Source: an uncultured Chthonomonadaceae bacterium
GTDB lineage: Bacteria > Armatimonadota > Chthonomonadetes > Chthonomonadales > CAJBBX01
Assembly: GCA_964396385.1 (NCBI GenBank)
Contig: CAYNFH010000004.1
Location: forward strand, 5,008-69,007
Direction: 5' to 3'
DNA: 64,000 bases
In this document: positions 29,276 to 57,993 of the stretch, piece after piece
How positions within the stretch are numbered: position 1 is the first letter of the stretch
How the letters are laid out: each line of letters opens with the position of its first letter
Translations under genes and position numbers: made by a program
Notes under the pieces: model-generated
What the model was told of the DNA's origin: nothing
The model's database searches: none
Seen by the model: only the letters and a program-made list of their open reading frames with translations

Positions 29276-30346
29276 ATGAGATACGCAACTCGGATAGGTC
29301 TAGTCATCCTATTGGGCTTAGGCGGGACTGTTGTCCCGTGGGTCCGTGTTCCGGCGCACGCGGGGCGTGCGGGGGCGGCCCGCACCTACACGAACCCGGT
29401 GTGGAACCACGATTTCCCGGATCCGTTTCTCCTGGAGTACGGGGGCCGGTTCTATGCGTACGCTACCCAGACCAACGGCTATGGCTACCAGGTGATGGAG
29501 TCGCCGGACATGGTCCGCTGGACCCATCGGGGCACGGCCTACATCCCGCCATGGTCCAGGGAGCACCTGTGGGCGCCGGAGGTGGTGCACTACCGCGGCC
29601 GGTTCTACCTGATCCACTCGGCGCGCAACCCGCAGAGCGGCCGGCACGACATCGGCATCGCTACCTCGGAGAGCCCGCTCGGCCCGTTCATGTACGGCGC
29701 CATCCTGGTGCGCGCGGACGAGAAGGTGGGCGGCTGCATCGACGCGGACATCTTCTTCGATAGGGACGGCACGCCCTATCTCACGTACTCGGAGGAGCAC
29801 CCGCGGCGCATCGTAGTGCGCAGGATGGCCCCGGACCTGATGTCGGTGGATTCGGAGGTGACGGAGCTGGTCCGCCCAGACCGGCCGTGGGAGCGCGGCG
29901 TCACAGAGGCGCCCACACTCATCCTGCGGAACGGCGTCTACCATCTCTTCTTCTCCGTGGGGTGGTACCAGAGCAACAAGAAGGACGCCTGCTACGCCGT
30001 CTGTCACGCCAGCAGCCGCTCCGTGCGGGGACCATTCGTGAAGGACCCGGACCCCATCCTCGCGACCGTGCCGGAGAAGGTGTACGGCCCCGGCCACCAG
30101 TGCGTAATCCGGCTTCCGAGCGGAGAGTGGTGGATGGGCTACCACGGCTGGGACAACCAGAACGAGCCGATGTACGGCTCCAACCCCATCGGCCGCTCCC
30201 TGCGCATCGACCGGATGGAGTGGCATCGCGACTCCCCCCGCGTTCTGGGCCCCACCACCACGCCACAGCCCGCCCCCAACCTCCGCGGCCTCCGCATGAA
30301 TCCCATACGGACCGAGCAAAGGAGCCACGCCCATGCCGGACGGTAG
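29276..30346 (+). CDS. Glycoside hydrolase family 43 (secreted paralogue)
   Basis: Signal peptide plus NPVWNHDFPDPF. High nucleotide identity to the 19656-20714 gene over the TEAPTLILRNGVYHLFFSVGWYQS region. Confidence 0.85.
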   Translation: MRYATRIGLVILLGLGGTVVPWVRVPAHAGRAGAARTYTNPVWNHDFPDPFLLEYGGRFYAYATQTNGYGYQVMESPDMVRWTHRGTAYIPPWSREHLWAPEVVHYRGRFYLIHSARNPQSGRHDIGIATSESPLGPFMYGAILVRADEKVGGCIDADIFFDRDGTPYLTYSEEHPRRIVVRRMAPDLMSVDSEVTELVRPDRPWERGVTEAPTLILRNGVYHLFFSVGWYQSNKKDACYAVCHASSRSVRGPFVKDPDPILATVPEKVYGPGHQCVIRLPSGEWWMGYHGWDNQNEPMYGSNPIGRSLRIDRMEWHRDSPRVLGPTTTPQPAPNLRGLRMNPIRTEQRSHAHAGR

Positions 30347-32831
30347 CGGAATCACGCGCCGCAGGTTCCTTGCCACATCGCTGGCAGGGCTCGCCGCAGT
30401 GGAGTGGCCCAGTGCGGAGGGAATGCCGCGCGACCACGCCGCCGTCCAGGATGCGCTGGCGCTGACGGACCCGGCCGGCGTGCGCCTGCAAGGGTACGTG
30501 GGCGAGAAGATAGACCTGGACCTCCGCAACCGCGTCATGGCGCAGGACATCCACAAGCTGGTGAAGCCCTTCTTCGACCAGACGGAGGTGGGTGACGGCG
30601 ACTGGCGCAACGAGTACTGGGGCAAGTGGATCACCTCCGCGGTAGAAGCGTACGACTACGAGCCCTCCCCGGAGCGCCGAGCCGTTGTGGAGCGCGGCGT
30701 AAGCGAGCTGCTGCCCGCCCAGAATCCGGACGGCTACATCGGCACGCGCAGCAAGGCCAGCCGCCTGCACGGGTGGGACGTTTGGGGCCGCAAGTACGTG
30801 CTGCTGGGGCTCCTCGCCTGCTACGATATGACCGGCAGCCGCACCATCCTGAACGCCGCCCGGCGCCACGAGGACAGCCTGCTCGCGGAGGTCGGCCCGG
30901 AGCCGGGCAAGGCCAACATCGCGGAGGTGAGCTACCAGGACCACCAGAGCCTGCCTTCCTGTTCCGTGCTGGAGCCCACGGTGCTGCTCTACCGCCGCAC
31001 CGGCGACCCGCGCTACCTGCGGTTTGCCGAGTACATTGTGGGCCAGTGGTCCAGGCCCAACCGCTTCAATCCCACCGGCATCCGGCTGGTAGAGAAGGCT
31101 ACTGTGGGCGCGCCGCCTTCCAGCATAGCTAATGGCAAGGCTTACGAGATGACCTCCTGCTTCGAGGGGCTGGCGGAGCTGTACCGCGCCACCGGGAAAC
31201 CGGAGTACCTGGAGGCGTGCCGGCGTTACGCGGACGGAATCGTGCGGGACGAGCTGTTCGTAGTCGGCTCCGGCTCCAGCCGGGAGGTGTGGTTCGGCGG
31301 CCGATCCAAACAGACGCAGGATAACCCGGATCCGATGGAGACCTGCGTCACGGCCACATGGATGAAGTACTGCCTGCAACTCCTCCGGCTCACCGGCGAC
31401 TCCCGGTACGCGGACCAGATGGAGATCAGCCTGTACAACGCGCTGCTGGGCGCGCTTAAGCCGGACGGAAGCTGGTGGGGCTACTACACGCCCATGCAGG
31501 GAATCAAGCGGCCGAGCGGCATCCAGCACGCGGACGTGGGGCTGAGCTGCTGCGTGGCCAACGGTCCCCGCGCCCTGATGCTCACGCCGCAGTGGGCCGT
31601 TATGGCCAGTGGCCGCCGACAGGAATCCGGTCTCACGACTCACGACTCACGACTCACGACTTTCGATGGCGTCGTGGTGAACGTGTACTGTCCGGGCACG
31701 GCGACAGCGAGGATGGCGTCCGGGCGGCGCGTCCGAATCGAGCAGGAGACGGAATATCCCGTGACGGACCAGGTGCGGCTCACAGTGCGGCCGGAGCGTC
31801 CGGCCACCTTTACGCTCAGCCTGCGCATCCCGGAGTGGAGCGAGCGGAACGCGCTGGAGGTGAACGGCCGGCCGGCGGACGTGGAGCTCCGGCCGGGCTC
31901 GTACGCGGCGGTCCGTCGCCCGTGGAAGCCGGGCGACACGGTTACGCTCACGCTGGACCTGCGCGGCAGGGTGCTGGAGGACCCCGGCAAGTCCGGAGCA
32001 GTCGCCGTCCTGCGCGGGCCGATTGTGCTGGCGATGGATCGGCGGCTGGTGAAAGATGACGGAGGACGGAGGACGGAGGACAGATCCGGAATCCGACTCA
32101 TCAACCCTCAACCTTCAACCTTCAACCAGATGCCGGATGGGCGGATCGAGCTGAAGCAACTGGCGGCGCCGGCAGGAATCTGGATGGCCTTTGAGGCGCC
32201 GTGCTCGACGGAGGGCGGCGGAGAGGCCCGGCTGCCGCTGTGCGACTACGCCTCGGCGGGCAACACGTGGGGTCGGGATTCGGAGTTCCGCGTGTGGCTG
32301 CCCCAGCCGCTGGAGGGGTTCGGGTCCGAGGCCGTCTCCCTCCAGGGCGCTTCCTGGATCTGGTTCGCAGGGGATCGCGGCGCCCGGTCGCAGCGTTACG
32401 CGCCTGCGGAGGACCTGCCGGCGGGGACGCGATACTTCCGGCGCGTCCTGGAGGTTCCATCCGGGATCCGGCGGGCGCGCATCACGCTCACCGCCGACGA
32501 CGGCTTCGTGCTCTACGTGAACGGCGAGGAAGTAGGGCAGGCGGCGGACTGGGGGCACCTGCACACGTTCGACATCACGCGCCGCCTCCGCGCCGGACGA
32601 AACGTGATCGCGGTGGCAGCCACCAACGCGAGCGTGTCTCCAGCCGGGCTTATCGCCGGCATCGAGCTGCTGCCAGCCGGCGGCCGGCCGGTTGTGCTGC
32701 TCACGGGCGCGGACTGGAAGAGCGCTGAGAATTCCGGAGCGAACTGGCAGGCGGTGGAATTCGACGACAGCGTCTGGTCCGCCGCCCGAGTCCTCGGCCC
32801 GTTCGGCATGGCTCCCTGGGGCGACTTGTAG
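30333..32831 (+). CDS. GH127-like (DUF1680, beta-L-arabinofuranosidase family) protein with a TAT signal and a C-terminal galactose-binding/rhamnosidase-N-like domain
   Basis: TAT motif RRRFLATSLAG. GLSCCVANGPR matches the Cys-Cys zinc/nucleophile motif of GH127. C-terminal WIWF...TRYFRR...LTADDGFVLYVNGEEVG. Two low-complexity inserts. Confidence 0.8.
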   Translation: MPDGSGITRRRFLATSLAGLAAVEWPSAEGMPRDHAAVQDALALTDPAGVRLQGYVGEKIDLDLRNRVMAQDIHKLVKPFFDQTEVGDGDWRNEYWGKWITSAVEAYDYEPSPERRAVVERGVSELLPAQNPDGYIGTRSKASRLHGWDVWGRKYVLLGLLACYDMTGSRTILNAARRHEDSLLAEVGPEPGKANIAEVSYQDHQSLPSCSVLEPTVLLYRRTGDPRYLRFAEYIVGQWSRPNRFNPTGIRLVEKATVGAPPSSIANGKAYEMTSCFEGLAELYRATGKPEYLEACRRYADGIVRDELFVVGSGSSREVWFGGRSKQTQDNPDPMETCVTATWMKYCLQLLRLTGDSRYADQMEISLYNALLGALKPDGSWWGYYTPMQGIKRPSGIQHADVGLSCCVANGPRALMLTPQWAVMASGRRQESGLTTHDSRLTTFDGVVVNVYCPGTATARMASGRRVRIEQETEYPVTDQVRLTVRPERPATFTLSLRIPEWSERNALEVNGRPADVELRPGSYAAVRRPWKPGDTVTLTLDLRGRVLEDPGKSGAVAVLRGPIVLAMDRRLVKDDGGRRTEDRSGIRLINPQPSTFNQMPDGRIELKQLAAPAGIWMAFEAPCSTEGGGEARLPLCDYASAGNTWGRDSEFRVWLPQPLEGFGSEAVSLQGASWIWFAGDRGARSQRYAPAEDLPAGTRYFRRVLEVPSGIRRARITLTADDGFVLYVNGEEVGQAADWGHLHTFDITRRLRAGRNVIAVAATNASVSPAGLIAGIELLPAGGRPVVLLTGADWKSAENSGANWQAVEFDDSVWSAARVLGPFGMAPWGDL
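31623..31661. repeat. Heptamer element inside the GH127 CDS (GGAATCCGG core plus CACGACT x4)
   Basis: Reverse complement of the GAGTCGT x4 / GAGACCGGAATC segment at 1977-2012. Encodes SGLTTHDSRLTT in both host genes. Confidence 0.85.
32061..32128. repeat. Heptamer element inside the GH127 CDS (GGAGGAC x3, CCGGAATCC core, TCAACCT x4)
   Basis: Read directly from the sequence. The GGAGGAC arm recurs in queE (57011-57045) and at 52174-52224. The TCAACCT arm recurs, reverse-complemented, at 29232-29245. Confidence 0.85.
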
Positions 32832-49675: not shown

Positions 49676-52231
49676 TTAAGGCGCTACACTGAACTTGAGG
49701 CCGGTGGCGGGGGTGCCGTCGGGATTCGCGAAGCGCGCTACGGCCCCCCAGCCCTGGTTGTTCTGCGTCACCTTCAGCAGCAGCCGGTTCCAGCCGGCGT
49801 TGGCATGGACCTTCACCTTCTCCTGGCCGGGCGCAACAGCCCGGGCCGTGTTGTCCGCCGCCACCACCTCGCCGTTCCACCACGCCTTCACGCCATCGTC
49901 GCTGCCCAGCTCCAGCGTGAGGTCCCGCGCCGTCTCCGACCACACGTTGGTGCGCAGGTAGGCCACGCGCTGCTCTCCGCCCAGCGCCGCCAGCAGGTCC
50001 AGCAGCCACGGCTGGTCCGGCGAGCCGCCGACGGGAAGCAGCTTCCAGGGAACCTCCTTCTCATGCTCCGGCTGCTCCGGCGGGAAGGAGATGTCGAACA
50101 GCTTGCGGTAGTCCGCCCCTTGCTGCTGGTAGGCCGGCGAGTACTCCCACGCCATCACGTAATCGCCGAACTTCGGCAGCACGGCGAGCAGCGCCCCGGC
50201 CTTCTTGCGGGCGTCATCGGTGGTGCCGTTGGCGGCAATGGGTTCCAGCGCGGCCCGCGACTTCTCCGGCCAGGCGCCCAGCGTGGACTGCGCGATCTCC
50301 ACCACTGCCGCCTCCGCCTCCGGGCGTACCTCGTTATCGGCCAGGAAGCCGGAGGCTGCCTGAAGCGCCCCCAGCGAATGGACCTTCTCCAGACCGGAAA
50401 GGATGAGCCGCCGCTCCTCCGGCAGCTTCGCCAGGGAGCCTGCGGACTGGTAGAGCGCCAGGGCCTGGTCCGCCGGCCGCTGCTCATTGAGGCCGATCAT
50501 CCGGATGTAGCCGCGCAGCGCGATGGTCCGCTCTTTGGCGTCCTGCGAGGAGCGCACGATACGGAGCAGGTCGTCCATGGGAGCGTCGGACTGCCACTCG
50601 GCTAATAGCCGGAGCGACGCGGCCTTCACCTCCGGGTGCAGGTCCGCCAGGCCCTGGCGCAGCGCCTCCAGGGCGTTCGGGCCGCCCACCTGCGCGAGCA
50701 CAGCCAGTAGGTCGACTCGGTCGGCCGGATCCTTGGCGGCGCTCTCTTTCTGCAGCAGCGCGCCGGTCCGCTGCGACTCGTCGGCGCCCCGCCGCGCGAC
50801 CTCGGCGGCAGTTTCGATGGCCTCGTCCCGCTCCCCGGCGGGCCGTGAAAGCAGCAGGTCCAGGATGGCCGGCAGGTCGCCCGGCGAGGCGGTGTCCCGC
50901 AGGACCTGGAGCGCCGCCGCGCTTACCTCCGGCTGGGTGCTCCCCGCCTCCTTCAGGAGCGTCGGTACCGCGCCGGGCGCGCCGCGGTCACCCAGCGCCT
51001 GAATGGCGGCTACCTGAGCTGGCGGTTGCTGCGATTCCAACGCTGCCAAGAGCTTTGCGTCTACTCCTCGTCCCCTCAGCTCCGCCAAGCTCGCGCGCGC
51101 GGCGGCCTTCTCCTCCAGCGATCCCGCAGCGGCCGCGTTCAGCAGGGCCGGCACATCCTCCGCGCCCCCAACTGAACCTAACGCCCGGTAGGCGGCCAGG
51201 CGCACTGCGCTTAGCTTGCTCCCAGCGGCTGCGAGCGCGGCCGGCTCAGCGCGCGGGTCGCCGCGGTCCGCAAGTGCCGTGAGCAGGAGCGCCGTCCCCC
51301 GCTCGGAGAGCTTTGGCAAGACGTACGCGGCGCCCGCCATGATCTGCTGAATCGGCAGTTCGTAGAGGAGCGCGGCTGCCGCCTTCTGGCGAGGAGTGCC
51401 GTCCTCGCCGAGCGCCGCAAATAGGGGACCCATGCCCTGATCTCCCTGCGCCAGTACCAGCCCCCGCAGCGCGGCGGCCCGCAATACAGGCGGCGCACTG
51501 TCGGCGCTCAGGAGCGTGTAGATAGCTACGGCACGAGCGGAATCTCCGGCGGCCTGCCGGCGCGCCGCCCAGGCGGCCAGCGCATGGCCCAGCATCAATC
51601 GCCGCTCCCCGCTCGCGGCCGTGTAAGCCTGCTTCAGCGGGGTGACCGTTGCCGGGGCAGCCAGCCTGGCCAGCCCTGCCGCCGCATCCTGCGCCTCGTT
51701 CGTGTCACTCGAATTCAGGGCTGCCGTCAGCGAGGGAATCACCCTCGCGTCTCCTCGGTCCGCCAGGGTGTCCGCTATCTCCACGCGGGAAAGTCCGGTG
51801 GCGTGCGGTAGTGCCGCAAGGAGCGCCTCGTTCACCGTGTTGCCTGGAATCCGAGCCAGGACCATGAGGGCACAGTGGGAGAGCTGCGCCTCGCCGAGCA
51901 GACCGGCCAAGACGGGAATCTGCTCGTCCGACGCGATGTAAACGAGCTCCCTGCAAACGAACTGTTTGGCGTCGAACGGCGCATCGGACTTCAGCACCTC
52001 CGCCAGCGCGCGCGCCACTTCCGGGCGCTTCGTTGGGTCCAGCCGAGCCTCCGCCACCCATTTGGCCGCGGCATCGAGCGCGCTCGCATCACCCCCGAAG
52101 CGATATGCTTCCACCCGCTGCACCAGGTCAACCGGCCTATCCTGGGCGGCGGGAATCGCGCAGCAGAAAGCAAGGAGGACCACGGACAGGACGACGGAGG
52201 ACGGGAGACGGAAGACGGACGGAGTTTTCAT
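49676..52231 (-). CDS. Secreted HEAT-repeat protein with a C-terminal lectin/jelly-roll-like domain
   Basis: Signal peptide and many HEAT-like A-rich repeats. C-terminal LELGSDDGVKAWWNGEVV...GWNRLLLKV. Its ATG overlaps the stop of the upstream oxidoreductase gene. Confidence 0.75.
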   Translation of the reverse strand: MKTPSVFRLPSSVVLSVVLLAFCCAIPAAQDRPVDLVQRVEAYRFGGDASALDAAAKWVAEARLDPTKRPEVARALAEVLKSDAPFDAKQFVCRELVYIASDEQIPVLAGLLGEAQLSHCALMVLARIPGNTVNEALLAALPHATGLSRVEIADTLADRGDARVIPSLTAALNSSDTNEAQDAAAGLARLAAPATVTPLKQAYTAASGERRLMLGHALAAWAARRQAAGDSARAVAIYTLLSADSAPPVLRAAALRGLVLAQGDQGMGPLFAALGEDGTPRQKAAAALLYELPIQQIMAGAAYVLPKLSERGTALLLTALADRGDPRAEPAALAAAGSKLSAVRLAAYRALGSVGGAEDVPALLNAAAAGSLEEKAAARASLAELRGRGVDAKLLAALESQQPPAQVAAIQALGDRGAPGAVPTLLKEAGSTQPEVSAAALQVLRDTASPGDLPAILDLLLSRPAGERDEAIETAAEVARRGADESQRTGALLQKESAAKDPADRVDLLAVLAQVGGPNALEALRQGLADLHPEVKAASLRLLAEWQSDAPMDDLLRIVRSSQDAKERTIALRGYIRMIGLNEQRPADQALALYQSAGSLAKLPEERRLILSGLEKVHSLGALQAASGFLADNEVRPEAEAAVVEIAQSTLGAWPEKSRAALEPIAANGTTDDARKKAGALLAVLPKFGDYVMAWEYSPAYQQQGADYRKLFDISFPPEQPEHEKEVPWKLLPVGGSPDQPWLLDLLAALGGEQRVAYLRTNVWSETARDLTLELGSDDGVKAWWNGEVVAADNTARAVAPGQEKVKVHANAGWNRLLLKVTQNNQGWGAVARFANPDGTPATGLKFSVAP
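52174..52224. repeat. Heptamer element (GGAGGAC/CGGAAGA type) encoding the signal-peptide region of the HEAT protein
   Basis: GGAGGAC CACGGAC AGGACGA CGGAGGA CGGGAGA CGGAAGA CGGACGG. Confidence 0.7.
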
Positions 52232-53532
52232 GACACACCCCACGGCGCGCGGAGGCGGCGGGCGAAGAGACGGTCGGCGTCAGGGTCGTCCACGAACCGC
52301 TCGTGCTCCGGGTCCCACTTCACGGGCCGGCCCAGCTCATAGGCGATGTTGCCCAGGTGGCACACGGTGATGGAGCGCGTCCCCACCCCGATGGGAGCGC
52401 TCACCGCGCCGCGGGTCTTGACCGCATTGATAAAGTCTGTGTGGTGGTTGTCCGCCGCGTGCAGGTGGATCTCGTCCGGCCGGATCTTCTGGTGTTTGAG
52501 GCTCTCCGGCCAGGTCTGCAGGTCGTACCGCCAGACGGCGACTTTCCCCTTCGTGCCGATGAACATTACGCCGTTGTCCTGACCGGATTCGCGCGCCAGC
52601 CGCTCCGGGTCCCGCATCACCAGCGCGCCGCTGGCGTAGCGGTAGGTGAGCACGGGCACGTCCTTGCCGTTGGGCGGGGCTATCTCCACGGGGCCGCTGT
52701 TGTCCATGCCGAGGCCCCACTGCGCGATGTCGAAGTGGTGCGCGCCCCAGTTGGTCATCTCCCCGCCGGAGAAGTCCCGGTAGGCCATCCAGCCGCCCAC
52801 CATATCCGCGTTGTAGGGCCGCCACGGTGGAGGTCCCAGCCACATGTCGTAGTCGAGCCAGTCCGGCACGGGCTGCGCCGGCAGCCGGCAGTCCCTGTAG
52901 GCCACCGGTCCGCCTACGCCCACCAGCACCTCCTTCACGTCCCCGATGTAGCCGTTGCGGACCAGCTCGCAGGCGAACCGGAAGGCGTAGCTGGAGCGCT
53001 GCTGAGTGCCCATCTCGAAGACGATGCCGTACCGGCGCACTACGTCGCGCACGGCCAGGGCCTCCTGGATGGTGACGGAGAGGGGCTTCTCCGAATAGAC
53101 GTCCTTGCCCGCGCGGGCGGCGGCCATAGTGATGTGCGGGTGCCAGCGCTCGCCCGTGGCGATGAGCACGGCATCCACGTCCGGCCGGGCCAGTACCTCC
53201 CGGAAGTCCCGATAGAGCGCGCAGCCGTTACTGCCGTACCGCTGGTTCACCAGGTTGCGGGCGTTCCCAGCGCGCTTCGCGTTCACGTCACAGACGGCCA
53301 CCACCTGCACGTCGTCCCGCCCGGTCATGCCGCCGGCCTGCGTCCAGATGCCGCCCACCACGTGCTGCGTTCCCTGGCCTCCCACGCCGATGTGCGCCAG
53401 GACCACGCGGTTGCTGGGCGCGACCTTGCCGCCGCGGCCGAGCGCGCTGGCCGGAACCACATACGGAAACGCGACGGCGGCTGCGGCGGCGCCTTTGAGG
53501 AATGCGCGGCGGGAGATGGTTGGAGAATTCAT
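52228..53532 (-). CDS. Gfo/Idh/MocA-family oxidoreductase with a TAT signal
   Basis: SRRAFLKGAAAAAV TAT motif. HIGVGGQG Rossmann start and the EKPLS motif. Confidence 0.9.
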   Translation of the reverse strand: MNSPTISRRAFLKGAAAAAVAFPYVVPASALGRGGKVAPSNRVVLAHIGVGGQGTQHVVGGIWTQAGGMTGRDDVQVVAVCDVNAKRAGNARNLVNQRYGSNGCALYRDFREVLARPDVDAVLIATGERWHPHITMAAARAGKDVYSEKPLSVTIQEALAVRDVVRRYGIVFEMGTQQRSSYAFRFACELVRNGYIGDVKEVLVGVGGPVAYRDCRLPAQPVPDWLDYDMWLGPPPWRPYNADMVGGWMAYRDFSGGEMTNWGAHHFDIAQWGLGMDNSGPVEIAPPNGKDVPVLTYRYASGALVMRDPERLARESGQDNGVMFIGTKGKVAVWRYDLQTWPESLKHQKIRPDEIHLHAADNHHTDFINAVKTRGAVSAPIGVGTRSITVCHLGNIAYELGRPVKWDPEHERFVDDPDADRLFARRLRAPWGVS

Positions 53533-56255: not shown

Positions 56256-56615
56256 CTACTTCTCTCCCCTGTAGACGCAGCCGGAGGTGCACGTCTCCTG
56301 GACCACCACCTTCGCCAGCCCCGGCAGCCGCGGCTGAAGGCGGACCCAGATCCAGCGGGCCAGGTGCTCGCTGGTGGGGTTCTCCAGTCCCTCGATGTCG
56401 TTGAGGCAGTTGTGGTCTAGCACGTCGAAGAGCGGCTGGAAGGCGGTCTTCAGGTCCGCGAAGTCCATCACCCAGCCGGAATGCTCGCCCACCTCGCCGC
56501 GGACGTGCACCTCCACGCGGAAGGAGTGGCCGTGCATCCTCCCGCACTTGTGTCCGGCCGGCACGTTGGGCAGCCGGTGGGCGGCCTCGATCTGGAAGAC
56601 CTTGTAGATGTCCAC
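56256..56615 (-). CDS. queD: 6-carboxy-5,6,7,8-tetrahydropterin synthase
   Basis: FQIEAAHRL and [13 protein letters not shown] motifs. GTG start at 56613-56615. Last gene of the queC-queE-queD operon. Confidence 0.85.
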
Positions 56616-56626
56616 GGGTAGGGGCC

Positions 56627-57301
56627 TCAGGGGATCCCGATGAGCTTGTGCGTCTGCACGCTCAGGCGCCAGCGCGGATGCGCCAGACAGTACCGGATGG
56701 CGAGCCGCGTGTTCTCCGCCAGGTGGGGACCGTCCATAGGCTGCAGGTACCAACGCTGGAAGTCCAGGTGCTCAAAACGCTCCGGCGCCGCGCCCTCTTG
56801 CGGGTAGACGAGCTTCAGCTCGCTGCCGCGCTCCACCACCAGGGGCGCCCCCGCCTTGGGGCTCACCGTAAGCCAGTCGATTCCGACCGGCGCGGGGCGC
56901 GTGCCGTTGGTCTCGACCGCCACCTCTAAGCCATGGGCGTGGAAGGCCGCTATCAGCTCTTCGTCCAACTGGAGCAGCGGCTCACCGCCGGTGCAGACCA
57001 CGAAGGGCACGGAGGACGGAGAACGGAGGACGGAGGACGGAGTGCCGGTTCTGTGGTCGCTGGCCGGCCATTTCTGAGCAACGGCGGCCGCCAGCGAATC
57101 CGCGCTCCGGAACCTGCCGCCGCCGGGGCCGTTGGCGCCCACAAAATCCGTGTCGCAGAACTGGCAGATGGCGCGCCCGCGGTCCTCCTCGCGCCCTGTC
57201 CACAGGTTGCAGCCCGCAAACCGGCAGAACACCGCCGGGCGGCCCGCGTGGGCGCCCTCTCCCTGCAGCGTATAGTAGATCTCCTTTACGCTGTAGGTCA
57301 T
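56627..57301 (-). CDS. queE: 7-carboxy-7-deazaguanine synthase (Burkholderia-type radical SAM)
   Basis: [34 protein letters not shown]...CQFCDTDF and [15 protein letters not shown] overlap with queC. Contains an in-frame heptamer insert. Confidence 0.9.
57011..57045. repeat. GGAGGAC-type heptamer run inside queE
   Basis: GGAGGAC GGAGAAC GGAGGAC GGAGGAC GGAGTGC on the plus strand. Encodes ...[14 protein letters not shown]... on the minus strand. Confidence 0.85.
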
Positions 57302-57993
57302 CTGTGCGCGCGGTATCGCGTGGGGTCGGCTACGCCTGCTTCCTGAAAGCCTTTCCGGCGCAGGAGGCAGGAGTCGCACTCTCCGCACGCCTTCCCGGTG
57401 GGTGAGGGATCATAGCAGCTCAGCGTGGCGGCGTAGTCCACGCCGAGCTCGGTGCCCTTGCCGATGATCTGTGCCTTGGTGAGGTGGATGAGCGGCGTGT
57501 GGATCTTGATCCGCTGCGTTCCCTCTACGGCCGCCTTCGTCGCACGGTTGGCCATCTTCTCGTAGGCTTCGATGTACTCCGGCCGGCAGTCCGGGTAGCC
57601 TGAGAAGTCGAGGCTGTTTACGCCGATGTAGATGTCGCTGGCGCCCAGCACCTCCGCCCAGGCGAGCGCGAAGGAGAGGAAGATCGTGTTGCGGGCGGGC
57701 ACATAGGTGACGGGGATCCCCTCGCCCATCTCCTGCGCGCTTCGACCCTTCGGAACCGCGATATCCGCCGTAAGCGCCGACCCGCCGAACTGCCGGAGGT
57801 CCATATCCAGTACCACGTGCTCTGCAGCCCCGAGCTGGCGCGCGATACGCCGCGCCGCCTCCAGCTCCACCTGGTGCCGCTGCCCGTATTGGAAGCTCAG
57901 CGCGTAGGCGGCGTAGCCCTCGCTCCGGGCAATCGCCAGCACGGTGGCGGAATCCAGCCCACCGCTTAGAAGAACCACCGCCCTTCCGTTCAT
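57298..57993 (-). CDS. queC: 7-cyano-7-deazaguanine synthase
   Basis: [28 protein letters not shown] and CGECDSC motifs. First gene of the que operon. Confidence 0.9.

Follow-up and report, generated by a model that had tools for sequence, protein, structure and literature searches.

A heptamer-repeat array read in frame in the queE gene of an uncultured Chthonomonadaceae bacterium

The queC-queE-queD operon and the array within queE

The window, that is, the whole stretch of 64,000 nucleotides analysed here, carries on its minus strand an intact queC-queE-queD operon, the genes of which overlap or are tightly spaced. The middle gene, queE, contains a short tandem array of heptamers that is translated as part of the enzyme. 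The features of the locus are as follows:

56256..56615, minus strand: queD, 11 nt downstream of queE (TIGR03367, 109 bits against a cut-off of 89)
56627..57301, minus strand: queE, encoding 7-carboxy-7-deazaguanine synthase of the Cx14CxxC type, 224 aa (TIGR04508, 4NJG, AlphaFold2 model)
57002..57067, minus strand: variable loop P79-F100 of QueE, between helix 67-76 and strand 100-104 (AlphaFold2 model)
57008..57043, minus strand: in-frame repeat insert encoding T87-V98 (TRF and comparison with the QueE of genome G046 and with family relatives)
57298..57993, minus strand: queC, directly upstream of queE (TIGR00364, 212 bits against a cut-off of 150)

The queE product scores 348.6 bits against the NCBIfam equivalog TIGR04508 ('queE_Cx14CxxC'; cut-off 240), with the full profile (1-208) covered, and is the sole strong QueE match in the genome (1.7e-157). 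It aligns end to end with QueE of Burkholderia multivorans (4NJG; E 3.7e-85), an enzyme of the same Cx14CxxC type with the same cluster and SAM motifs (PDB 4NJG-4NJK). Indeed, the cluster cysteines (C31-x14-C46-xx-C49) and the SAM motif GGE (T104-G105-G106-E107) are both intact and occupy invariant columns of a 62-sequence alignment, and the stop codon of queC overlaps the start codon of queE (ATGA). With its motifs intact and with queC and queD as its neighbors in the operon, QueE with the insert most likely still makes 7-carboxy-7-deazaguanine (CPH4 to CDG).

A preliminary description of the window, made from the letters alone, had reported a heptamer array lying in frame inside queE, and this is borne out by the sequence, by TRF, by the translation of the minus-strand ORF and by the match to TIGR04508. 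On the plus strand, positions 57008-57043 read CAC GGAGGAC GGAGAAC GGAGGAC GGAGGAC GGAGT, corresponding to ACTCC (GTCCTCC)2 GTTCTCC GTCCTCC GTG on the coding strand. TRF delimits the array at 57009-57042 (period 7, 4.9 copies, 92% matches, score 61) and gives it the consensus ACGGAGG, which is the canonical unit common to 121 other arrays of the genome; written in the register of that family, the array is (c)ACGGAG GACGGAG AACGGAG GACGGAG GACGGAG. At most two perfect units stand side by side, and variant units make up two of the five.

The size of the insert depends on the protein with which it is compared. The same description had proposed about 14 extra residues, equivalent to 42 nt or six heptamers. 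The residue count stands against B. multivorans QueE, the alignment with 4NJG opening a single gap of 14 residues exactly between WPAGEA and HRFVVC; of these 14 extra residues between WP and FVVC, 12 are encoded by the repeat. Against G046, the nearest QueE found in the phylum (72% amino acid identity, loop WPSGSDRAGPLVVC), the difference is 12 residues (T87-V98), and the estimate of 42 nt gives way to 36 nt, that is, five units plus one base. The insert is placed between G86 and P99 because S-D-R-x-G is shared with the G046 loop, and the ends of the 36 nt differ from those of the TRF array by no more than one base; the frame of queE is not kept by a whole number of heptamers. Both the boundaries of the insert and its mode of origin are deduced from relatives of which the nearest is the one with 72% amino acid identity.

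The genome of this soil bacterium is a draft of 398 contigs (6.62 Mb, 65% G+C), and repeats are a classic source of misassembly, which raises the possibility that the array was introduced or mis-sized while the genome was being built from metagenomic data. However, an array of 36 nt fits inside any modern read, QueE sequence continues unbroken on both sides of it within one open frame, and dozens of other copies likewise lie in frame in real proteins. We regard an assembly artefact as extremely improbable.

The loop and its counterparts in other QueE proteins

The AlphaFold2 model of QueE, built with 62 homologues (mean pLDDT 82, pTM 0.80), resembles 4njg_A with a TM score of 0.87 (E 1.3e-26, 58% identity over the structural alignment). 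The preliminary description had left room for the insert being a surface loop, and in the model it does fall in a low-confidence coil: residues 77-99 form a coil, in which pLDDT drops below 50 at 82-90 and 92-95, and the 12-residue peptide is predicted to be disordered. The strand that follows (100-104) runs into T104-G105-G106-E107, the SAM-binding GGE, so that the insert stands at the N-terminal end of this strand. On the general topology of the radical-SAM partial TIM barrel, the insert would lie on the face opposite the Fe-S cluster, the substrate and the active site.

The array is missing from all 15 other Armatimonadota QueE proteins examined, 14 of which have short loops and one an unrelated long loop. 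In five genomes of the same family, QueE is 209-212 aa long, with 6-9 residues between WP and VVC and no insert. Within a 300-genome sample of the phylum, a match was found in 12 other genomes (two of them also among the five family relatives); 11 of these matches span 624-639 nt, and the twelfth, in genome G258 (690 nt), has an unrelated, non-repetitive loop of 27 residues at the same site. No GGAGGAC-like seed is present at the insert site in six Armatimonadota relatives (the five same-family genomes and G046). No closer relative was found in the protein collection, the 90%-identity cluster consisting of one member, and a search of metagenome contigs for population variants or an empty site, which used exact 30-nt anchors from either flank of the array, gave no match.

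As a separate observation, the Cx14CxxC-type QueE is encoded in only 13 of 301 sampled Armatimonadota genomes, a patchy distribution, and the top homologues by score come from several other phyla (Ktedonobacterales, Pyrinomonadaceae, Gemmatimonadales, Planctomycetota). Taken together, these two observations suggest horizontal spread of the gene or its frequent loss.

The loop between WP and FVVC varies in length well beyond this phylum. In 80 species representatives, fetched regardless of loop length, the segment W78-V101 comprises 7-14 aa in 76 and 19-42 aa in the remaining four, and several metagenomic QueE homologues carry 8-25 extra residues in the same loop. Most of the long loops of other lineages are non-repetitive, and the long loops have no sequence in common. 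These comparisons mark the loop as a general hot spot for changes in length. The earlier proposal that the segment stems from a repeat element and is not an ordinary loop is supported by the dispersed family described below and by the lack of the array in the 15 other Armatimonadota proteins. Alignment with the characterized enzyme 4NJG and with the orthologs shows the insertion, and segments of equal length and normal composition, which would have spoken for an ordinary loop, do not recur across the phylum. The proposal is to be qualified in that the insert more probably measures 36 nt than 42 nt, and in that the loop in which it lies is a general site of insertions and deletions.

Independent lengthening of the same loop in several lineages could also indicate that the insert was selected, the extra peptide providing QueE with a new interaction or a means of regulation. 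Against such an adaptive role, the peptide is the obligatory translation of a PPSSVLR-type repeat that recurs in about 15 other proteins, its predicted state is disorder, and the long loops elsewhere lack a common sequence. We consider this explanation highly improbable.

Dispersed heptamer families of the genome and the origin of the queE array

The queE array is one of several in the window. The word GGAGGAC occurs there 29 times, against 13.8 +/- 3.2 expected, and further arrays are read in frame in two other genes:

30333..32831, plus strand: GH127 beta-L-arabinofuranosidase-like gene (PF07944 and PF20736)
31632-31661: second in-frame array of the GH127 gene, unit CTCACGA, in the linker that joins the catalytic domain to the middle domain
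32058..32127, plus strand: composite array of the GH127 gene, consisting of GACGGAG x3.4, a TCCGGAATCCGA core and TCAACCT x3.9, and encoding DDGGRRTEDRSGIRLINPQPSTFN
52176..52219, minus strand: GGAAGAC/GGACGAC array read in frame within the ORF 49676..52243, which encodes a HEAT-repeat protein; it falls in the N-terminal signal-like region (PSVFRLPSSVV)

The arms of the composite array are not complementary, and its site follows the middle domain of the GH127 protein. GGAGGAC-type repeats in GH127 and in a signal-like region had already been pointed out, and both were indeed recovered in frame (32058-32081 and 52176-52219).

On the scale of the genome, TRF detects 508 arrays of period 7 and 400 of period 8 at a score of at least 50, and a third-order Markov simulation of the whole genome yields none of either period at that threshold. 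Lowering the score to at least 30 brings the numbers to 1731 and 1248, respectively, with a few unit families dominating. There are 211 distinct heptamer units, and arrays most often have four copies (686 of the 1731 period-7 arrays). ACGGAGG, which is the same unit as GGAGGAC and GACGGAG, accounts for 122 arrays, more than any other heptamer family but one. When aligned, its copies have a common register and common variable positions, GACGGNG, with a mode of 3.4-4.4 copies; at 4.9 copies, the queE array conforms to the family trait of about four units. The pattern GACGGNGGACGGNGGACGG has 93 matches in the genome (4 for the reversed-pattern control) and 0-7 in each of 40 relatives from the same family and order, and therefore the family has expanded in this lineage.

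About half of the ACGGAGG arrays are hairpins, in which the units run on to a palindromic CGGATTCCGGAATCCG-type core and its mirror arm, whereas 68 of the 122 are single-armed like the queE copy, so that the hairpin is not obligatory. Neither the core nor the mirror arm adjoins the queE array; with both missing, it could be a fragment or have a separate origin. We also considered a hairpin around the queE array itself. Imperfectly complementary coding flanks at 56998-57060 (ACCACGAAGGGCAC and GTGCCGGTTCTGTGGT) would pair into a long stem that has the array in its loop, but the region folds no better than shuffled sequences (z -1.44; 15 of 200 shuffles at least as good). The pairing of the flanks was treated as chance, because shuffles equal it and because one of the arms encodes the conserved PFVV.

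How the arrays relate to genes was assessed on a crude map of ORFs and GC3 that covers 86% of the genome, and all in-gene figures are to be read with that map in mind. On it, 22% of the heptamer and 20% of the octamer arrays lie deep in coding-like ORFs, as against 51-67% of arrays with periods 6, 9 and 12. The ACGGAGG unit is free of stop codons in all frames of both strands, and 49 of its 122 arrays are intragenic on the crude map, the highest share among the abundant heptamer families (more than 50 arrays). They are read as TEDGGRR in 34 cases and as PPSSVLR, the reading found in QueE, in 15. All seven array-bearing ORFs submitted to Pfam have recognizable domains (glutaminase A-like, S9 peptidase, M14 carboxypeptidase, xylose-isomerase-like TIM barrel, CbiX, alpha-2-macroglobulin and PL4 lyase), and in three of them the array is inside the domain envelope. 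An apparent orientation bias of stop-containing units within ORFs was dropped as circular, ORFs being defined by the lack of stops.

Evidence on the behavior of the arrays comes from repeated sequences within the genome. A search for filled and empty paralogous sites, by BLAST of array flanks, returned 38 pairings with arrays in both copies, the number of units sometimes differing; a single pair (C254 against C135) looked near-empty, but it was discarded because the short matches behind it fall within other arrays. A multi-copy element of ~180 nt, with copies 85-94% identical (C65:2039-2222, C99:19008-19189, C262:1575-1749 and C148:424-604), contains a CTGACNA array whose length varies among the four copies in steps of whole units, for example by +14 nt in C99 relative to C65. 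This is direct evidence that the heptamer arrays of this genome gain and lose whole units.

Collectively, these results lead us to think it likely that queE has gained, in frame, one single-armed 36-nt copy of a dispersed array, which is a tolerated passenger and not a device or a switch. A preformed copy of the GACGGNG/GGAGGAC array, about five units long, would have entered the loop and would have survived there owing to a stop-free unit, a length that is a multiple of three and the tolerance of a surface loop to changes in length. It would then be translated as a disordered peptide of 12 residues, with the catalytic core untouched. That the enzyme remains active, that the insert is neutral and that it came in preformed instead of growing in place are what we infer.

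The array might instead have grown in situ, by replication slippage from a short seed in the loop and independently of the other 121 arrays. Unit numbers do change in this genome, as the CTGACNA array of the ~180-nt element illustrates, the QueE loop is under little sequence constraint, and polymerase slippage was proposed for heptamer repeats by Mrazek et al. 2007, according to the summary in PMC4679880. However, out of 211 distinct heptamer units, the one in queE is exactly that of the second commonest family, the six relatives contain no GGAGGAC-like seed, and the family hardly occurs outside this genome. Because the unit belongs to a dominant family, because a seed is lacking in the six relatives and because the family is confined to this genome, dispersal is favored over growth in place, which we deem quite unlikely; nonetheless, insertion and in situ expansion cannot be separated without a closer relative.

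A further alternative is a contingency switch, in which gain or loss of one unit would frameshift queE and thereby toggle the supply of queuosine and 7-deazaguanine. In principle, a one-unit change in a 7-nt tract would indeed shift the frame, variation in unit number does occur in this genome, and heptanucleotide tracts are described in PMC8262952 as driving phase variation in Haemophilus. Like the contingency loci of Haemophilus and Neisseria, queE contains an in-frame tandem unit that is not a multiple of three. Unlike them, its tract is interrupted and far shorter than that of known switches, and the host is a housekeeping tRNA-modification gene, not one for surface structures or restriction-modification. 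In addition, the same type of array is present in dozens of unrelated enzymes, so nothing is particular to queE, and no frameshifted or length-variant copy of queE was found in the protein cluster or in metagenome contigs. A switch is, in our estimate, very unlikely.

Mobilization of the arrays by Y1 (REP-associated or IS200-type) transposases was considered and set aside: no GACGGNG arrays flank the six PF01797 genes of the genome. These mutually divergent IS200/RAYT-like genes are:

C315:1606-1947, Y1 transposase gene
C94:20752-21090, Y1 transposase gene
C6:21772-22110, Y1 transposase gene
C135:10887-11225, Y1 transposase gene
C252:1338-1676, Y1 transposase gene
C21:5242-5577, Y1 transposase gene

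One of the six has an internal TAG, and the gene on C315 adjoins a classical REP-like partner, a tandem pair of 29-nt units that contain a palindrome (CAGGCACTTCAGTGCCTG).

Known repeat systems and a parallel in Gemmatimonadales

Among the known heptamer systems are the heptanucleotide arrays of cyanobacteria. Heptameric repeats of the class LSSR5-11 are over-represented in some bacteria (Mrazek et al. 2007, as summarized in PMC4679880), GGGNATC repeats with a preference for four units have been described in Xanthomonas and Nostoc (Rehm et al. 2015, PMC4692102), and the TAACTGA repeats of Beggiatoaceae include copies inside ORFs at the ends of proteins (PMC4679880). As portrayed in these two sources (PMC4679880, PMC4692102), published heptamer repeats form occasional inverted pairs, are depleted from coding regions and are essentially intergenic. 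The arrays of the present genome are similar in being dispersed genome-wide, in having about four units and in forming some inverted pairs, and they are likewise under-represented in coding sequence (22% of arrays against 86% ORF cover on the crude map). In contrast to the published repeats, the queE array lies in the middle of an enzyme, a conserved radical-SAM protein, and is translated. Moreover, unlike GGGNATC, the unit GACGGNG is not a G3-4 tract, and the rationale of Rehm et al., a G-quadruplex of four tracts, is not obviously applicable.

In-frame insertion into metabolic genes is known from the Rickettsia palindromic elements (RPE; Ogata et al. 2000, 2002, as summarized in PMC10969869). 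On that summary, the QueE insert resembles RPE as a dispersed repeat that is read in frame in unrelated metabolic genes and is translated at a position compatible with the fold. By the same account, RPE are palindromic and MITE-like, measure ~150 bp and encode a conserved peptide, whereas the QueE insert is a plain tandem array of 36 nt with no significant hairpin. The QueE case thus combines both known kinds: it is a heptamer array, not a MITE-like palindrome, and it is translated in a conserved enzyme. It provides a clean and well-bounded instance of a dispersed short tandem repeat written into a conserved enzyme, and a loop lengthened by a repeat while the catalytic core is untouched illustrates one route to disordered protein segments. 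For annotation and phylogenomics, such length differences in housekeeping genes of repeat-rich genomes are to be read as repeat insertions and not as assembly errors or pseudogenes.

A parallel case was encountered in QueE of a Gemmatimonadales metagenome-assembled genome (GCA_052389555.1, contig JBQTHV010000090.1; here L020), which has 15-16 extra residues in the same WP...FVVC loop. The DNA encoding these residues includes an octamer array, TCCGGCCG x4.2, at L020:10265-10298. The octamer GCCGTCCN has 57 matches across the 3.2-Mb Gemmatimonadales genome (10 for the control), and the contig is rich in 7-mer arrays and in pairs of mirror arms. The five most similar Gemmatimonadales QueE proteins (75-76% identity) have short loops. 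The QueE loop has thus been struck independently, in two phyla, by the short-array family proper to each genome. This independent octamer insertion in the same loop is the most useful new detail of the present analysis, the novelty of which is modest. It also makes QueE a handy model for asking whether such recurrence arises from selection of permissive loops alone or from target preference too.

The two families have a common core, GACGG/CCGTC, and each has a single degenerate position per unit (GACGGNG in the present genome, GCCGTCCN in the Gemmatimonadales genome). The common core may be due to chance or to a common sequence determinant. Because both families have this core, occupy tens of loci, consist of about four units and have reached the same QueE loop, it is conceivable that the arrays are not slippage debris and were placed by an active mechanism recognizing GACGG/CCGTC, a reading that we hold to be unlikely. 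If it were true, QueE and the other array-bearing enzymes would show which targets are favored by a new kind of miniature mobile element that generates protein loops.

Other long loops at this site are of different composition. Those of two planctomycete QueE proteins (L018 and L019) and of the Armatimonadota genome G258 occupy the same site but contain no tandem array. In another Planctomycetota metagenome-assembled genome (L025, JAHWKJ010000082.1), QueE has a loop of 42 residues at the same site, the DNA of which includes a C7-TTAGTAA-G7 palindrome read in frame, that is, a different kind of small hairpin insert.
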